Positions 1,701 through 7,639 are shown, counted from the first letter of the stretch. The stretch: DNA of 29,374 bases from Verrucomicrobiales bacterium (GCA_007125835.1 SLCJ01000140.1:1-29374); one strand, 5' to 3'. The notes: a model not told the origin generated them from the letters alone. A program made the numbers and translations.

Positions 1701-2327
1701 TCACTCGGTGGCTGCCGGGCCCCGGCGCTCGCGGGCGGGGCGACGTGGCGGATCCTGCGGCTGAGGCATGTATTCCGCGATTCCTCGGCGGTATTCGCGC
1801 ACGGTGATTTGGCCGTCGTTGTTGGCATCCATGGCGGCGAGAAGGATGCGCGGGGCGGCGGCAAGTTCCTCGGCGCTGATCACTCCATCGTTGTTCCGAT
1901 CGAGCAGGGCAAAGAGGGGCGGCACCCTTTCCGGGGCTGGCCTTTGCGGGCGCTCGGGTCTCTCCGGCCGTTCGTCCCTCTGCCGAAGTCCGGGGCGCTC
2001 GGGTCGGTCCGGTCGCTCAGGACGAGCTTCTCCATCGGGATTGAAGCGGCGGCGCCCTTCGATCCATTCCTCGCGTGTGATGGTGCCGTCGTTGTTGATG
2101 TCGAAGCGCCTGAGGATGCGCGGGGCGGCGGCGAGTTCCTCGGCGGAGATCAGCCCGTCGCGGTCCTGATCAAAGAGCAAGTAGCCGGGGGCCAGAGCGC
2201 GGACGCGATCGGGGTTGAGAATCCGGGCCTCGCGGCCTGGACCTTCGCCTGCGGGCTGGGCCGCAGTGAATCCAGCGGAGAGCAGCACGCAAAGGGCTGC
2301 GGTGGATAGGGCTGTGCGTGTTTTCAT
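1701..2327 (-). CDS. Exported EF-hand calcium-binding protein (4 EF-hands, 208 aa)
   Basis: Signal peptide MKTRTALSTAALCVLLSAGFTAAQ. Loops DQDRDGLISAEE, DINNDGTITREE, DRNNDGVISAEE, DANNDGQITVRE; RPE-repeat linker. Internal duplication visible in DNA (1843-1875 vs 2113-2145, 32/33 identical). Start moved from 2420 to ATG 2327. Confidence 0.9.
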   Translation of the reverse strand: MKTRTALSTAALCVLLSAGFTAAQPAGEGPGREARILNPDRVRALAPGYLLFDQDRDGLISAEELAAAPRILRRFDINNDGTITREEWIEGRRRFNPDGEARPERPDRPERPGLRQRDERPERPERPQRPAPERVPPLFALLDRNNDGVISAEELAAAPRILLAAMDANNDGQITVREYRRGIAEYMPQPQDPPRRPARERRGPAATE

Positions 2328-2420
2328 AATGGTATGGATTTGGTGTTTTCTGTCGAACGGAAGGTGATTGTGGAAACCATCCCGTTGCAATGGATGGAAC
2401 CACAGGGATGTAAGGATCAT

Positions 2421-2458
2421 GTGAAAATCGCCGTGAAAATTGTAAAGCTTGTGTAAAA
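2421..2458 (+). promoter_or_regulatory. Putative OmpR/CpxR-type tandem direct-repeat binding site
   Basis: GTGAAAAT twice (2421, 2433), then GTAAA-N6-GTAAA (2442-2457), in the divergent intergenic region. Confidence 0.4.
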
Positions 2459-2525
2459 CCGTGGCGTCCCGTCAAATGCGAGCTTGCCAGGCCACTTCAT
2501 TTGGAGGCATAATCAGGCATCCTCG

Positions 2526-3314
2526 ATGGCCTCCGTCTTCCCATCCGCGCTCCCTTCTTCGGCACCGTTCCGCGTTTTGGCGGTAGATGACGACTGCAAG
2601 TTCTGCGCCCTACTTGCGGATTATTTGAGGCCGTTCGGTTTTGAGGTGGAGGCGGCTCACAGCGGGCCGGATGGCTTGGCAAAAGTGGAGGCGGGCGGCT
2701 ACGATGCGGTGATTCTAGATGTGATGCTGCCGGGTTTGGATGGCCACGAGGTTCTGCGGCGGATCCGGGCGGTCTCGGCCGTGCCGGTGTTGATGCTGAC
2801 CGCCCTGGGGGAAGAGGCGGACCGCATTGTCGGCCTGGAGTCGGGTGCGGACGATTACCTGCCCAAGACATTTTCCACGCGTGAATTGCTGGCGCGCTTG
2901 CGGGCCGTAGTACGGCGCTCGCGTTTGGGTGGCCTGAGCCGGAGTGACAAGCCCGATCAAGAACCTGATGGCGACGAGGAACTGCGCTCGGCAGGGCTGC
3001 GGATAAATTTTTCGCGGCACGAGGTGGAAATGGACGGCCAGCCGGTGGAACTCACGCCTGTGGAATATTCGCTTCTGGCGGCGCTGCTGCGTGCACGAGG
3101 GCGGGTCTGCTCGCGCGAACTGCTCCTGGAAAAGGTGCGCCAACGCGACTATGACATCTATGATCGCAGCATCGATGTGCATGTCTCGTCGCTGCGCAGG
3201 AAACTCGGCGACGACGCCCGGGAAGGGCGATTGATTCGCACCGTGCGAGCCGCAGGTTACCAGTGGGCGGGTCCCCCGCCCCGCCCCGCCGAAGGGAAAG
3301 GAGCGGCGACGTGA
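2526..3314 (+). CDS. OmpR/PhoB-family response regulator (CpxR-like)
   Basis: Receiver motifs VDDD, ILDVMLP (phospho-Asp), GADDYLPKTF; winged helix DRSIDVHVSSLRRKLG...IRTVRAAGY. Likely start ATG 2526. Confidence 0.95.
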   Translation: MASVFPSALPSSAPFRVLAVDDDCKFCALLADYLRPFGFEVEAAHSGPDGLAKVEAGGYDAVILDVMLPGLDGHEVLRRIRAVSAVPVLMLTALGEEADRIVGLESGADDYLPKTFSTRELLARLRAVVRRSRLGGLSRSDKPDQEPDGDEELRSAGLRINFSRHEVEMDGQPVELTPVEYSLLAALLRARGRVCSRELLLEKVRQRDYDIYDRSIDVHVSSLRRKLGDDAREGRLIRTVRAAGYQWAGPPPRPAEGKGAAT

Positions 3315-4831
3315 AGCGGTTCCGGCCGGGGCTGCGGGCGAAGATTCTCGCCGGGCTGCTCGTCAATGTTTTGGCCTTGGGGGGATTGTTGGCTTGGTTG
3401 TTGGGTGTCGGCGTGGGCGGCGGCGACGCGCTCATCGCCGGGCGGGCGGCCAACCAGGTCACCTCGGTGGCGCGCACGCTGGCCGCCGAACTGTCGCGGA
3501 CGCCGCGCGAGGACTGGAACAATGTGCTAATTTCCTACGGGGAATCCCATGGCGCAGACTTCTCCGTAGTCAGGCATGACGGGAGCACAGTTGTCGGAGC
3601 CCGGGTGGAGGTGCCGCTGGAAGTGCTGCGGCGGATCCCCCCACCGCGGGCCGTGCCGAGCCGGGGGGGCGGGATCCGGAGGCCAGGCCTTGGGCGGGAA
3701 ACGGAAACACGTCCGGCATCCCCTGGCGCCTTGGTCGAAAGCCAGGCCGAGTTTCTGTTTTTCCTCAGGGCGGGCACGCCGCCGCGCCATTTCGCAGCGG
3801 CCCGGATCCCCCTTCGTCCGCCAAGACGCCCCCTGTCGCCGGGTGCCGTGGATTTCACGCTTCTGATTTCCACCGACTCACTCGCCGGGAGCCCGCTTTT
3901 TTTCGACCCGCGTCCGTGGTTGCTGGCGCTCACAGCAGCTGGGGGCCTGACCTTGCTGATCTGGCTGCCCATTTTGGGAGGCATCGTGCGCCGCCTGGGC
4001 AAGCTTGAGTCTGCCACAGCAAAAATTGCCCGCGGACATTTTGATTTGGATTTGGGTCGGAAGGATGGGGATGAAATCGGCCGCCTGGGCCACTCGATCC
4101 GGGTGATGGCTGCGGAACTGGATCACTTGGTCACCGGGCAGCGGCGGTTTCTTGCGGATGCCGCCCATGAACTCTGCGCGCCGCTGGCCCGTTTGCGCCT
4201 GTCGATCGATCTGCTCGAAAGAGAGGTTACCGCAGACCCGCAGGCCACTCAGCGGCTGCGCCAAGTCGATGCCGAGGCTTCGGAACTCGGTCTGCTGGTC
4301 GAAGGGATTCTGGATTTTTCCCGGGGCCAGTGGAGCGGCAAGCCACCGCATCGCGAACACTTTCCGCTCGAAAAGTTCCTTCAGGAAGTGGTCGAGCGTG
4401 AGATTCCGGGCGTTGAAACTGCGGTGCATGTGGAATCCGCACTCGCTGAAGTGCAGAGCGATCCCACACTTCTGCGGCGAATGCTGGCAAACCTCCTACG
4501 AAATGCAGCGCGCCATGGCAAGGCTCCCGTGTCGGTCGAAGCGGCTGCGGAGGATGATGGGTGGCGGCTTCGGGTGCGGGATGCGGGCGAAGGGGTCCCG
4601 CATGAGTGGCTGCGTGGGATGTTCGAGCCCTTTTCCCGACCCGACCCGTCCAGGGCACGCGAGAGTGGGGGGCACGGACTGGGTCTTGCCATCGCCCGCA
4701 CCTGCGTCGTGGCTCTCGGCGGAATAATACGCGCAAAAAATTTGCCGGAGGGCGGCTTCGAAGTAGAGGCACACTTTCCTTGCCACAGTGAGCAGCACGA
4801 CGATCACGATAAATCGACACCTGCAAACTGA
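3311..4831 (+). CDS. HAMP-domain sensor histidine kinase (CpxA-like)
   Basis: GTGA overlap with the regulator stop; two TM segments; HAMP DEIGRLG; H-box AHELCAPLARL; N-box NLLRNA; G-boxes DAGEG and GHGLGLAI. Confidence 0.95.
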   Translation: MKRFRPGLRAKILAGLLVNVLALGGLLAWLLGVGVGGGDALIAGRAANQVTSVARTLAAELSRTPREDWNNVLISYGESHGADFSVVRHDGSTVVGARVEVPLEVLRRIPPPRAVPSRGGGIRRPGLGRETETRPASPGALVESQAEFLFFLRAGTPPRHFAAARIPLRPPRRPLSPGAVDFTLLISTDSLAGSPLFFDPRPWLLALTAAGGLTLLIWLPILGGIVRRLGKLESATAKIARGHFDLDLGRKDGDEIGRLGHSIRVMAAELDHLVTGQRRFLADAAHELCAPLARLRLSIDLLEREVTADPQATQRLRQVDAEASELGLLVEGILDFSRGQWSGKPPHREHFPLEKFLQEVVEREIPGVETAVHVESALAEVQSDPTLLRRMLANLLRNAARHGKAPVSVEAAAEDDGWRLRVRDAGEGVPHEWLRGMFEPFSRPDPSRARESGGHGLGLAIARTCVVALGGIIRAKNLPEGGFEVEAHFPCHSEQHDDHDKSTPAN

Positions 4832-4862
4832 TTTTCGTTCTTGCCAAAATACCGATTTGGCG

Positions 4863-4877
4863 GTAAAACTGTGGAAA
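4863..4877 (+). promoter_or_regulatory. Second putative CpxR-type box upstream of the beta-barrel gene
   Basis: GTAAA-ACTGT-GGAAA, similar to GTAAAGCTTGTGTAAA at 2442-2457. Confidence 0.3.
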
Positions 4878-4891
4878 TTACCCTAATTCTG

Positions 4892-5620
4892 ATGATCAAG
4901 AAAACCAAAGCCATCCTCTTCGCGTCCACTGTTTCCCTGGCCACACCTGCTTTTGCCGGAGAATCCACCTTCATCGCCACGGCAGATCGACCCGCAGGCA
5001 ACTTGCTGGGAGGTGCCCACCTCACAGTCGAGGGCGGCGTGTGGTCTGACTTCATTTTCCGTGGACGCGAATTGGGCGACACGTCCGGAGATGCCCGCGC
5101 GGAATTGATTTTTCCCCTTGGAGACAACGCCAGCCTGAGCCTGGGTGGCCGATACGTGGGAGGCGACGACTACGAGCAATCCGAGGGATTCGCCGCCGTG
5201 CAGCAGGGTTTTGGCGCGGTGACACTTGCCGCCGGCTATCGGTTTCTGGGGTTGGACGCAGGAGACCGCCATGAGCTTGGCCTGATGTTGGGCACGCAAA
5301 TCGCGGGATTGGATTGGATGCTTTCCCTCTTCCACGACACCGAATTCAGCGGCGAATACATCGAACTTGCCGCACGCAAAAGCTGGTCGCTGAGCGAGCC
5401 GGTCTCGCTCGGGCTGGGCGGCGGAATCTCCGCCGTTTCCGACTACTGGGTGCCGGGCAGCGGATTCAACCACGCCTTCCTGCGCCTCGATTTGCCGGTT
5501 TCCGTGCGCGATGGAGTGACATTGACCCCATGGATTGCCGGCAACTTCCCGGTGGATAAGCTCGACGACATTCAGAGCGACGAGGTCTACGGCGGTGTCA
5601 GCCTGCGCCTCGATTTTTAA
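4892..5620 (+). CDS. Outer-membrane beta-barrel, putative porin (TorF/Gcw_chp-like)
   Basis: Signal peptide ending PAFA; SDFIFRG motif; alternating amphipathic strands; C-terminal VSLRLDF ending in Phe. Start reset to ATG 4892. Confidence 0.82.
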   Translation: MIKKTKAILFASTVSLATPAFAGESTFIATADRPAGNLLGGAHLTVEGGVWSDFIFRGRELGDTSGDARAELIFPLGDNASLSLGGRYVGGDDYEQSEGFAAVQQGFGAVTLAAGYRFLGLDAGDRHELGLMLGTQIAGLDWMLSLFHDTEFSGEYIELAARKSWSLSEPVSLGLGGGISAVSDYWVPGSGFNHAFLRLDLPVSVRDGVTLTPWIAGNFPVDKLDDIQSDEVYGGVSLRLDF

Positions 5621-5757: not shown

Positions 5758-5834
5758 GGTGGTCGTAGCTCAGTTGGTAGAGCTCCAGATTGTGGTTCTG
5801 GCTGTCGCGGGTTCGAGTCCCGTCGATCACCCCA
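5758..5834 (+). tRNA. tRNA-His(GTG) with encoded G-1 and CCA
   Basis: Acceptor stem GTGGTCG/CGATCAC, D-arm GCTC/GAGC, anticodon stem CCAGA/TCTGG with GTG at 5792-5794, GTTCGAGTCC T-arm, C discriminator then CCA. Confidence 0.98.
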
Positions 5835-6360
5835 TTTGATTTTCTCTGCATTGGCACAAAGCCAACAGCCCGTCCGACCGACACGACGACGTCGGCCTGT
5901 ACATTGACACGCCAAGTTTTTGCTGCCTACGTATCAATTTGTCGGTAGTAAACTATGTCGGCAATCTTTGCTCTAATCTTTGCCTTCCAATATTTAATTG
6001 AAATTATCCCAAGGAATTCCGTCTCAAAATCCTCACTAAATCGCCCACTCGGGCCCGGCAGGGAAATTTCGCCGAACCATGGACAACCACAAGCCTCTGA
6101 GTTGAAACAGCTGTGCGCCTCAACAATTCCCGATCATCCTGGCACCTCAAAACCTAGGTTTTCAGCCGCATCCATGACACCGATGCCGTTTCAGTGCCCC
6201 CAAACACCCAAAAACGCCGCCTTCCGGGCACTTGGAATGGTCAGGAACCCCGTCCCTTCGCTGATGTTCTCCGAAACGGAAGCAACTCCCAGACCATTCA
6301 CCCGGTGACACTACACCTCAGCACCCCTCCGCTTCCCCGATCCCCAAAACCATTGCTGAC

Positions 6361-6378
6361 CCGCAGCGCGCGCTGCGG
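6361..6378. repeat. Perfect 18-bp palindrome near the RHS-fragment breakpoint
   Basis: CCGCAGCGCGCGCTGCGG equals its own reverse complement; about 20 nt beyond the last RHS-like codon. Confidence 0.6.
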
Positions 6379-6398
6379 CCGCCAGGCTCTCCGCGCTG

Positions 6399-7203
6399 CC
6401 AGCCGTCGTAGAGGTAGAGGGTGGTGGTTTCTTCCACCGCGTCAATGCGCAGGATGCGGCGCGAGCGGGCGTCATAGGCGTAGCTGACCAGCGGGTCGGT
6501 GGCGCTGATTTTTCCTTCGTTGTCGCGTGCGGTCACTTTATTGACGGCGATGAGGCAGCGCCTGTCCGCTCGTAGCGGACTTTCCCAATAACGGATTCTT
6601 GGCGCAGAATCCGCATCTGGCACAGTCTGAACGGAGTGTAGACAATTTTCGCCGTCCCAGACGTATTCGCGGTCTTCGCTGTGTTTGTTGGACTTGGCGT
6701 CCTCGGTGAGGTTGCCATCGTGGTCGTGGACGCGGGGCCAGCGGGTCGCCGCCTCCCACGGTGATCGATGCATATTGGTTGAGTGCGGTGGGGTCGTAGA
6801 CGGTGGTCACGGACGTGGTATCGCCGACGATGCTTTGGAGGCGGTTGCCGATGGCGTCGAAGAGGTAGCTGCGGTCGAGTTCGGAATCGGCGGTGTTGGC
6901 AGCAGCAGTGAGCTGGCCGAGGGCATCGTAGCCCCAGGTCCAGCCGCGGTTGGTGCCTGAGTAGGCACTGCCGGAGGTGACGAGGGTTTCGCGCTGGCCG
7001 ATTTGGTTCACGGTGTAGTGGAAACGAGACACCGCTTCCTGTGCCCCGTCAAGGCGGTTGTCTTTGAGAAGCAGAGCGTTGCGGGTGGTGTCCCAGGTGT
7101 GGGTGGTGACCAGAGGGGCGGTCTGGCCTGCTCCCGCGCGGGTGATGCTGTCCAGGAGGTGTGCAGATTGGTTGGTGTAGGCGTATTCGATGCCGCAAGA
7201 AAT
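6399..7203 (-). pseudogene. RHS/YD-repeat protein internal fragment (no start, frameshift near 6732, no RHS core end)
   Basis: Frame opens after TAA at 7206-7204: ...IEYAYTNQ...HYTVNQIGQRE...WGYDALGQL...YLFDAIGNRL...ALNQY. A +1 shift near 6732 leads to VHDHDGNL...YVWDGEN...YAYDARSRRI...YLYDGW, then similarity stops. Confidence 0.85.
6558..6644. mobile_element. 87-bp in-frame insertion with two hairpins (MITE/PATE- or REP-like)
   Basis: Splits the RHS motif WDGEN|xLIAV by 29 non-RHS codons. Hairpins GTCCGCT-CGT-AGCGGAC (6564-6580) and CGGATTCT-N6-AGAATCCG (6592-6613). Confidence 0.5.
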
Positions 7204-7243
7204 TTACAAAGGAACACGTTTCGCTGTTACCATTACAGATCCT

Positions 7244-7372
7244 TGTAGCGGCGCATCTATGACCGTCGCACTTTTTCTGCTCTCTGGCAATGCGTTCACC
7301 GAGAAACATTGCCAATGCTAGCGAAAACTCTCAGGCCGGAAAATCACCGGCGGTCGTAGACGCGCCGCTACA
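7244..7372. repeat. REP doublet (REPIN-like), GTAG family
   Basis: 25-bp inverted repeats TGTAGCGGCGCATCTATGACCGTCG (7244-7268) and the reverse complement of 7348-7372, TGTAGCGGCGCGTCTACGACCGCCG; 3 mismatches, all transitions. Inner IR TGGCAATG (7285-7292) / CATTGCCA (7307-7314). Confidence 0.8.
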
Positions 7373-7523
7373 ACCGCTCCCGCACCCACCCCCGCCGGTG
7401 CTCGTAGCTGCGATCTGAATACGCATCCTCCCCGCACAAAAACGCCCGCCGCACACAGCGGCTCACGCAGTGGGAAACCTGCGGAACTCCCTCAGTTACA
7501 GTGTTTTGACGTAAATTTGGCAT
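7368..7523 (-). pseudogene. Truncated Y1/HUH (RAYT/IS200-like) transposase, N-terminal 51 aa
   Basis: AAAGGA RBS then ATG 7523: [65 protein letters not shown]...YEHRR.W is the N-terminal signature of a Y1 transposase clade. The stop is the TAG of the REP GTAG. Confidence 0.85.
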
Positions 7524-7639
7524 GTCAGACTTTTCCTTTCTGCCTTGGGTTTCGGCTTGAGCATGTAAACCATCGGAGCCGCGTGGAAAATTTCTAGATA
7601 ATTTTGGCAGGCAATATTTTAAAGAAATTTTTGCCCTAT

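Follow-up and report, generated by a model that had tools for sequence, protein, structure and literature searches.

Do a sensor system, the exported EF-hand protein encoded divergently from it and the beta-barrel protein encoded behind it form one regulatory circuit? The question is raised by a 29,374-nucleotide stretch of DNA from a Verrucomicrobiales bacterium (GCA_007125835.1, SLCJ01000140.1:1-29374), hereafter called the window, which forms contig C185 in a 2.83-Mb metagenome-assembled genome (413 contigs, 83% complete). An earlier note on this DNA had described, at positions 1701-5620, an exported protein gene with four EF-hands divergent from a regulator-kinase pair and followed by a barrel gene, and all four genes are indeed present as described. 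It had then proposed a self-contained, Cpx-like envelope circuit in which the EF-hand protein modulates the kinase, the barrel is the regulated channel, and both flanking genes share a GTAAA box. The reading that we consider probable is narrower: the regulator and the kinase would constitute a two-component system found across Verrucomicrobiota, whose conserved features are a single operator and an EF-hand target, and the barrel would be a mere neighbour. A conserved functional unit is supported for the regulator-kinase pair, the EF-hand gene and the first box (box 1), but apparently not for the barrel.

1701-2327, minus strand: gene for the exported protein with four EF-hands, 208 amino acids (open reading frame and Pfam)
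2439-2458, plus strand: probable operator ATTGTAAAGCTTGTGTAAAA, supported by weight matrix (32.9 bits) and by orthologous loci, with box 1 (2442-2457) as its core
2526-3314, plus strand: gene for an OmpR/PhoB-family response regulator, 262 amino acids (Pfam Response_reg and Trans_reg_C)
3311-4831, plus strand: gene for a HAMP sensor histidine kinase, 506 amino acids (Pfam)
4892-5620, plus strand: gene for a predicted outer-membrane, 12-stranded beta-barrel, 242 amino acids (AlphaFold2 model)

A conserved putative operator beside the regulator gene

Two boxes of the CpxR type (GTAAA-N5-GTAAA) had been reported in the locus. Both are present, box 1 at 2442-2457 and box 2 at 4863-4877, and each is the sole match to its pattern in 29 kb, with 0.02-0.03 matches expected from shuffles. 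Neither has exactly the form quoted for CpxR. Box 1, GTAAA-GCTTGT-GTAAA, has the GTAAA direct repeat but with a 6-nt spacer and an 11-bp period, whereas box 2 has the N5 spacer but ends in a degenerate half (GTAAA-N5-GGAAA).

The comparative sample comprises 22 order-level loci, including the window, and six further phylum-level loci from three more families. Within the order, the consensus (A/T)TTGT[T/A/G]AAG-N4-TGTAAA(A/T/G) lies at most 200 nt upstream of the regulator gene, typically in one copy. It is found there in 20 of the 21 loci other than the window, and the last locus has an inverted copy. Half-sites across the family are TTAAG or TAAAG, followed by TAAA[A/G/T], and the N6 spacing is fixed throughout. 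With a weight matrix made from 19 orthologous sites, the window site being left out, box 1 is the top match in the whole genome; the runner-up, on contig C389, reaches 31.0 bits and all others 18.4 bits or less. The operator is also present beside the system in all six phylum-level loci (20-28 bits), none of which was used for the matrix, upstream of the regulator gene in four and between the regulator and kinase genes in two. Over the 10-17 kb surrounding each orthologous locus, hardly any strong match occurs other than the one preceding the regulator gene. Among 6-mers enriched in the regions upstream of the regulator, TGTAAA ranks first (17 of 22 loci vs 0.57 expected) and GTTAAG second (14 of 22 vs 0.28 expected). 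The regulator gene always has the operator in the same orientation, called here forward, about 70 nt before its ATG in the window. By row tally, a genome with a kinase orthologue has on average about 1.5 matches to TGT[N]AAG-N4-TGTAAA, vs about 0.2 where a kinase orthologue was not found.

On the EF-hand side, GTGAAAA repeats adjoin the operator, and L095, L096 and L099 show a further upstream site of lesser strength, GTTAAG-N4-TGTGTGG.

2421-2427 and 2433-2439, plus strand: two GTGAAAA half-site-like repeats, read from the sequence; possible auxiliary sites, uncertain
2484-2513, plus strand: candidate sigma-70-like promoter of the regulator-kinase operon, TTGCCA-N18-CATAAT, 10 of 12 consensus positions

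The C389 site, ATTGTCAAGATTTCGTAAAA (C389:4696-4715, minus strand, locus L176), is located 174 nt from the contig end, in DNA of about 50% G+C vs 62% for the genome. Pfam recognises nothing in the neighbouring open reading frames, and a divergent target of the site, if there is one, would fall past the contig end.

Operator and EF-hand genes across genomes

A small exported EF-hand gene stands beside the system in 11 loci. At the order level, it is the divergent gene in 5 of 21 loci, belonging to three genera (L049, L095, L096, L098, L099), and five of the six phylum-level loci also have such a gene beside the system. Elsewhere, the divergent gene encodes a larger exported YHYH protein with C-terminal EF-hands (L080-L082, L089) or a YHYH protein (L093). 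In the 11 loci scored by script, the operator is found 55-132 nt before the EF-hand ATG (111 nt in the window) and always in reverse orientation, pointing away from that gene; in a twelfth locus, L049, placed by hand, the distance is 117 nt. As the layout is divergent and the two fixed orientations are opposite, one asymmetric site satisfies both promoters in the window.

The operator also accompanies EF-hand genes that have left the locus. Neither G013 nor G025 has an EF-hand gene next to the sensor system; in both, the orthologous EF-hand gene is unlinked, with an operator 109-110 nt before its ATG. The operator core at this unlinked gene in G013 is identical to the regulator's own site, and no other gene faces it. 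No operator was detected at 17 other EF-hand loci of related genomes, mostly coding for large multidomain proteins (best score, 14.1 bits).

The predicted link between the EF-hand gene and box 1 is therefore regarded as well supported, and the exported EF-hand protein is very probably the main target of the sensor system. The earlier note had made conservation of the boxes and synteny with the flanking genes decisive for its proposal. For box 1 and the EF-hand gene, both extend over many genera and several families.

The exported EF-hand protein

Following its orthologues, the start of the EF-hand protein is set at ATG 2327 (MKTRT...), which provides a signal peptide, and ATG 2420 is not used. 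The signal peptide, MKTRTALSTAALCVLLSAGFTAA, is of the Sec type by inspection. The protein is built of two EF-hand pairs separated by a Pro/Arg/Glu-rich linker. The four loops are DQDRDGLISAEE, DINNDGTITREE, DRNNDGVISAEE and DANNDGQITVRE, and D1, G6 and E12 are found in all of them, as the earlier note had said. In Pfam, EF-hand_5 (E=1.6e-24) and an EF-hand_7 pair (E=3.1e-13) are matched, as are EF-hand_1 and EF-hand_6. With paired 12-residue loops carrying D1, G6 and E12, it is an EF-hand family protein and a predicted Ca2+ binder. At E <= 0.01, the Pfam matches are to EF-hand-type families only, plus weak SPARC and dockerin Ca-binding matches, and hence no CpxP-type domain is recognised in the divergent protein.

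Two more specific identities were considered and rejected. As a lanmodulin (LanM), the protein scores 33 bits with NF053806 vs a cut-off of 135; LanM loops have Pro at position 2, where the loops here have Q, I, R and A. As a XopAW effector, its score is far under the cut-off.

The regulator and the kinase

As predicted from their domains, the regulator and the kinase are an OmpR/PhoB-family two-component system encoded in one operon. Indeed, Pfam recognises a receiver domain (PF00072) and a winged helix (PF00486) in the regulator, and HAMP (PF00672), HisKA (PF00512) and HATPase (PF02518) domains in the kinase, whose GTG start overlaps the regulator stop (GTGA). The kinase begins with a first transmembrane segment, followed by a PAS/PDC-like periplasmic domain of about 165 amino acids with a Pro/Arg-rich loop, a second transmembrane segment and the HAMP, HisKA and HATPase domains. 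Orthologues of the pair occur in the 21 other same-order loci, with kinases 32-40% identical, and regulators 53-60% identical are found in 27 other loci of the order and phylum samples together. In a tree of the regulator and the kinase core, EF-hand-linked systems are spread over several lineages, among them the two deepest branches; the placement of the window is unsure because its branch is long.

The name "Cpx-like" given in the earlier note fits the layout and the box type but not the descent. The regulator is 40% identical to Escherichia coli CpxR, and its recognition helix, DRSIDVHVSSLRRKL, is very similar to that of CpxR, DRAIDMHISNLRRKL. However, it stays under every NCBIfam equivalog cut-off (177 bits vs 341 for the CpxR model NF008199), and the MtrA, RpaB, PhoB and OmpR models score it the same as or above the CpxR model. 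The best NCBIfam match of the kinase is CpxA (NF007007), with 158 bits vs a cut-off of 486 and over residues 198-493 only. By BLASTP, its HAMP-kinase part aligns with CpxA but its periplasmic sensor domain does not. By these comparisons, the system is not a Cpx orthologue.

In the structural model, the fold of the sensor domain is PAS/PDC-like and its Pro-rich loop is variable. A CpxA-like or CusS-like sensor was rejected, the structure matches being weak and of the PAS/PDC type only (E >= 0.04), with no significant match in the Protein Data Bank. In the window (3420-3900) and the orthologues, this domain carries a Pro/Gly/Arg-rich insertion varying from about 20 to 120 amino acids and similar in composition to the EF-hand protein linkers and tails.

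Relation to known systems

Among characterised systems, CpxP-CpxRA, ZraP-ZraSR and BqsRS/CarSR-efhP come closest as analogues, and the system here belongs to no named one. As checked in E. coli K-12, the Cpx locus likewise has a small exported protein gene divergent from the regulator-kinase pair, with tandem GTAAA-type boxes in the spacer. It differs in the protein occupying the accessory position, which is here an EF-hand protein and not of the CpxP type, and in the period of the boxes, which is 11 bp (N6) throughout the family here vs 10 bp (N5) at E. coli cpxP. The mexA site of CpxR in Pseudomonas aeruginosa is GTAAA-N6-GTAAA, and the published CpxR consensus allows a spacer of N4-8 (PMC5063474).

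BqsRS/CarSR, whose targets are bqsP, carO, carP and efhP, is an OmpR-type system responding to periplasmic cations (Fe2+, Ca2+). The BqsR box of P. aeruginosa is TTAAG-N6-TTAAG (PMC4358008, PMC13522522), with the same 11-bp period, and the family consensus T[T/A]AAG-N6-TAAA[A/G/T] has one or two mismatches to it. The 11-bp direct repeat thus fits binding by an OmpR-family protein, as the BqsR box and the mexA CpxR site are alike in this respect. CarSR is required for the regulation of the EF-hand gene efhP by Ca2+ and Fe (PMC11559002). In contrast, efhP is not beside carSR, EfhP has two EF-hands, and the RExxE motif of Fe(II) sensing is absent from residues 36-200 of the kinase and from the family alignment. 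The likeness to BqsR and BqsS is drawn from the box and the outputs.

In the ZraP-ZraSR system, one high-affinity site in the spacer between the divergent zraP and zraSR serves both autoregulation and control of the accessory protein ZraP, a Zn2+-containing periplasmic chaperone (PMC8249747). The one-site divergent design is the same and the accessory protein there contains a metal, but ZraR is a sigma-54 activator of the NtrC type, whereas the regulator here is of the OmpR type and its partner is an EF-hand protein. An exported EF-hand protein genetically coupled to an envelope regulator is also known from Caulobacter vibrioides, where the Sec-exported periplasmic EF-hand protein CaBP forms a mutual loop with the envelope-stress regulator SigV, responsive to Ca2+ and pH (PMC13171946). 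That regulator, however, is an extracytoplasmic function (ECF) sigma factor and not a two-component system, and the sigV promoter lies inside cabp.

The barrel gene and box 2

The barrel protein has a signal peptide and a C-terminal Phe, and its AlphaFold2 model (pLDDT 84.6) contains 12 strands. The top Foldseek match is PcoB (E=2.3e-9). VIA-align Z scores are 17.0 for PcoB, 16.9 for KdgM and 16.4 for both NalP and the COG4313 channel, and since Z does not separate these proteins, the fold is that of a generic barrel. A PcoB/CopB copper channel was rejected as an identity, the Z score not being above that of other barrels and the sequence identity to PcoB being 15%. The Gcw_chp/TorF family (PF09694) has no match in the window barrel, and 6 of 26 members of the barrel family match it weakly (best E=2.8e-6).

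Of 61 related genomes, 44 have barrel homologues, frequently more than one, and almost never beside the sensor system. A barrel gene directly follows the kinase gene in the window and L101 only; the two barrels are 88% identical, and L101 is too close a relative to count as independent. In G001, a 35%-identical paralogue is found about 2.7 kb from the regulator gene, past the EF-hand gene and an opposite-strand gene. Other genes surround the nearest orthologues of G001 (50% identity) and of two metagenome contigs (51-53%), one of them a JGI contig.

Box 2 ends 15 nt before the barrel ATG at 4892. The operator matrix gives its region -2.0 bits, a value equalled or exceeded at 3,724 positions of the genome, and no operator was found upstream of 24 barrel homologues (best score, 13.6 bits). 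A candidate promoter ends 22 nt before the ATG, and its -10 hexamer (4864-4869) lies inside box 2.

4841-4869, plus strand: candidate sigma-70-like promoter of the barrel gene, TTGCCA-N17-TAAAAC, 9 of 12 consensus positions

A comparable sequence, TTGCAT/TTGCAC-N17-TAAAGA/TACAGA, precedes the ATG by 23 nt in L102 and L100, two barrel orthologues with no adjoining sensor system. Because this layout recurs in them, the best interpretation of the GTAAA in box 2 is that it belongs to a -10 hexamer. For these three reasons (score, homologues and promoter), box 2 was rejected as a regulator site, and the claim that both flanking genes share a GTAAA box was not confirmed, with 32.9 bits for box 1 vs -2.0 bits for the box 2 region. 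The same evidence, with the rarity of the barrel gene beside the system, tells against the barrel as the regulated channel. Conservation and synteny, so wide on the EF-hand side, thus fail on the barrel side, where synteny ends at the genus. The barrel gene appears to be a lineage-specific neighbour with its own candidate promoter and not a conserved part of the system.

The same genome encodes a 33%-identical barrel paralogue (C148:4537-5259, L003/L051); its ATG is preceded at 91 nt by a similar promoter-like site, TTGCAC-N17-TAAAGT, and no sensor system is in the vicinity. Downstream of the barrel gene of the window lies a tRNA gene, past which RHS-like fragments (open reading frames containing WDGEN; window 5759-7600) may mark an island boundary.

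5759-5834: tRNA-His gene, downstream of the barrel gene

Further candidate targets and paralogous systems

A conserved box TCTGTAAAGCG[C/G/T]GTGTAAAA of 16-26 bits is found upstream of an exported VWA-domain gene in seven genomes of the genus g12 (L117, L155-L160) and in G021 (L145). It lies about 35-80 nt upstream, in reverse orientation as at the EF-hand genes, and the VWA protein has a MIDAS-like DTSNSMDG motif. This gene is a candidate further member of the regulon. Operator-like boxes also precede genes for homologous exported TPR-like proteins in two genera (L150, G033:C36, 26.8 bits; L153, G057:C42, 20.5 bits), which may be further targets.

The second copy of the system in g12 genomes (L080-L082, L089) is paralogous and has exported YHYH-EF-hand (and PEBP) fusions as partners. 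The box of this copy reads GTCAGG-N5-GTCAAG or GTAAAG, a divergence that would be expected if box and regulator co-evolve and cross-talk with the first copy is avoided. In L173 (G116:C1:1082000-1094000), the regulator and kinase genes are about 3.3 kb apart, separated by a gene for a YHYH/Ig-domain protein of 872 amino acids that has its own 27.8-bit box, and an exported EF-hand protein of 117 amino acids, with a 22.7-bit box, is encoded after the kinase. A YHYH gene was not found in the genome of the window; with an assembly 83% complete and control genomes equally blank in the same search, this result is uninformative.

Proposed mechanism and alternative explanations

In the mechanism that we propose, the phosphorylated regulator would bind the operator, most likely as a head-to-tail dimer, and this single site would control two divergent promoters, that of the regulator operon in forward and that of the EF-hand gene in reverse orientation. 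The kinase would sense an envelope or divalent-cation signal, upon which the EF-hand protein would be made as the signature output, a periplasmic or secreted Ca2+-binding protein. The barrel gene would have its own sigma-70-like promoter and receive no more than read-through transcription starting before the kinase gene. This scheme is built on comparative observations, namely which genes are present, how the operator is conserved, placed and oriented, and its link to EF-hand genes; from them, we infer binding of the regulator to the operator, the direction of regulation, the nature of the signal and Ca2+ as the ligand.

Several observations weigh against this scheme. The subfamily L083-L088 has the operator but no EF-hand partner, and such a partner is also missing in L090, L091, L097 and L170. 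The strong site on contig C389 has no EF-hand gene in view and is unexplained. The sites of the matrix were originally picked by eye and with a regular expression, so that the order-level scores are partly circular; for this reason, the 6-mer enrichment and the matrix-independent phylum-level loci serve as checks, and these, together with the unlinked EF-hand genes, are free of that circularity. The genomes compared are related and hence not independent. On the barrel side, no terminator is found in the 60-nt spacer between the kinase and barrel genes (4832-4891), and L101 keeps the regulator-kinase-barrel order; the barrel may therefore be co-transcribed by read-through in the genus. The sole contig found in a metatranscriptome labelled alkali sediment, and listed under the same sample as a run containing the window DNA, is 173 nt long, covers 4918-5090 within the barrel gene and does not bridge the kinase-barrel junction.

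Beyond being the main target, the EF-hand protein might also serve the kinase as a Ca2+-dependent accessory that modulates it by feedback, like CpxP or ZraP; we hold this tentative idea unlikely. No described EF-hand co-sensor of a bacterial histidine kinase was found in the literature. The full four-gene circuit of the earlier note, in which this modulation is joined to a barrel channel regulated through box 2, is improbable. It could draw on the layout shared with cpxP/cpxRA and zraP/zraSR, the latter with a metal-containing periplasmic accessory protein (PMC8249747), on the persistence of the EF-hand link across the phylum, on the Pro/Arg richness shared by the sensor loop of the kinase and the linker of the EF-hand protein, and on the barrel gene following the kinase without a terminator, also in the relative with an 88%-identical barrel. 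However, box 2 is not the operator motif, and the barrel family is neither a conserved neighbour nor a carrier of the box. Moreover, because L083-L088 lack an EF-hand partner and the EF-hand gene is unlinked in G013 and G025, an output or target fits better than an obligatory co-sensor. A more modest role for the barrel, as a recent genus-specific recruit to the operon that is read through under box 1 while keeping its own promoter, is conceivable but on balance doubtful. The short terminator-free spacer, the gene order kept in L101 and the paralogue near the orthologous regulator gene in G001 speak for it, but the 50-53% identical orthologues found elsewhere have the same promoter layout, L101 is not an independent case and the metatranscriptome contig stops short of the junction.

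The operator itself could be bound by another factor, or be a promoter element, and merely travel with these genes. Indeed, the genome encodes at least four OmpR-type regulators, and the C389 site and the box-bearing VWA and TPR-like genes of relatives indicate that the motif is not limited to the locus. Yet in 27 of 28 loci, with or without an EF-hand gene, the operator accompanies the regulator gene, and such self-regulation is common. Its halves are only 11 bp apart, too short a spacing for -35 and -10 elements, and a promoter reading was rejected on this ground. In addition, the box is more frequent in genomes where the kinase orthologue occurs, and the box of the paralogous subfamily (GTCAGG-N5-GTCAAG) is correspondingly diverged, as if box and regulator co-evolved. 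This explanation is accordingly considered very improbable, and a conserved operator of the sensor system, with the EF-hand gene as its target, is retained as the probable reading.

Significance for Verrucomicrobiota

Bacterial calcium signalling is poorly understood, and few regulators of periplasmic EF-hand proteins are known, the cases being CarSR-efhP in Pseudomonas and CaBP-SigV in Caulobacter. Here, a regulator family, its putative operator and its signature target are defined across a mostly uncultured phylum from sequence alone, and a false lead is removed, as the barrel and box 2 would lie outside the circuit. The design is compact, since one asymmetric site would serve two divergent promoters, each in a fixed orientation. 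The predicted regulon is testable and would include EF-hand genes, YHYH genes and possibly genes for VWA and TPR-like exported proteins, so that the uncharacterised YHYH domain gains a regulatory context. If the EF-hand protein were also a co-sensor of the kinase, the single orientation-specific operator and its EF-hand partner would constitute a phylum-wide periplasmic calcium- or cation-sensing circuit of Verrucomicrobiota.

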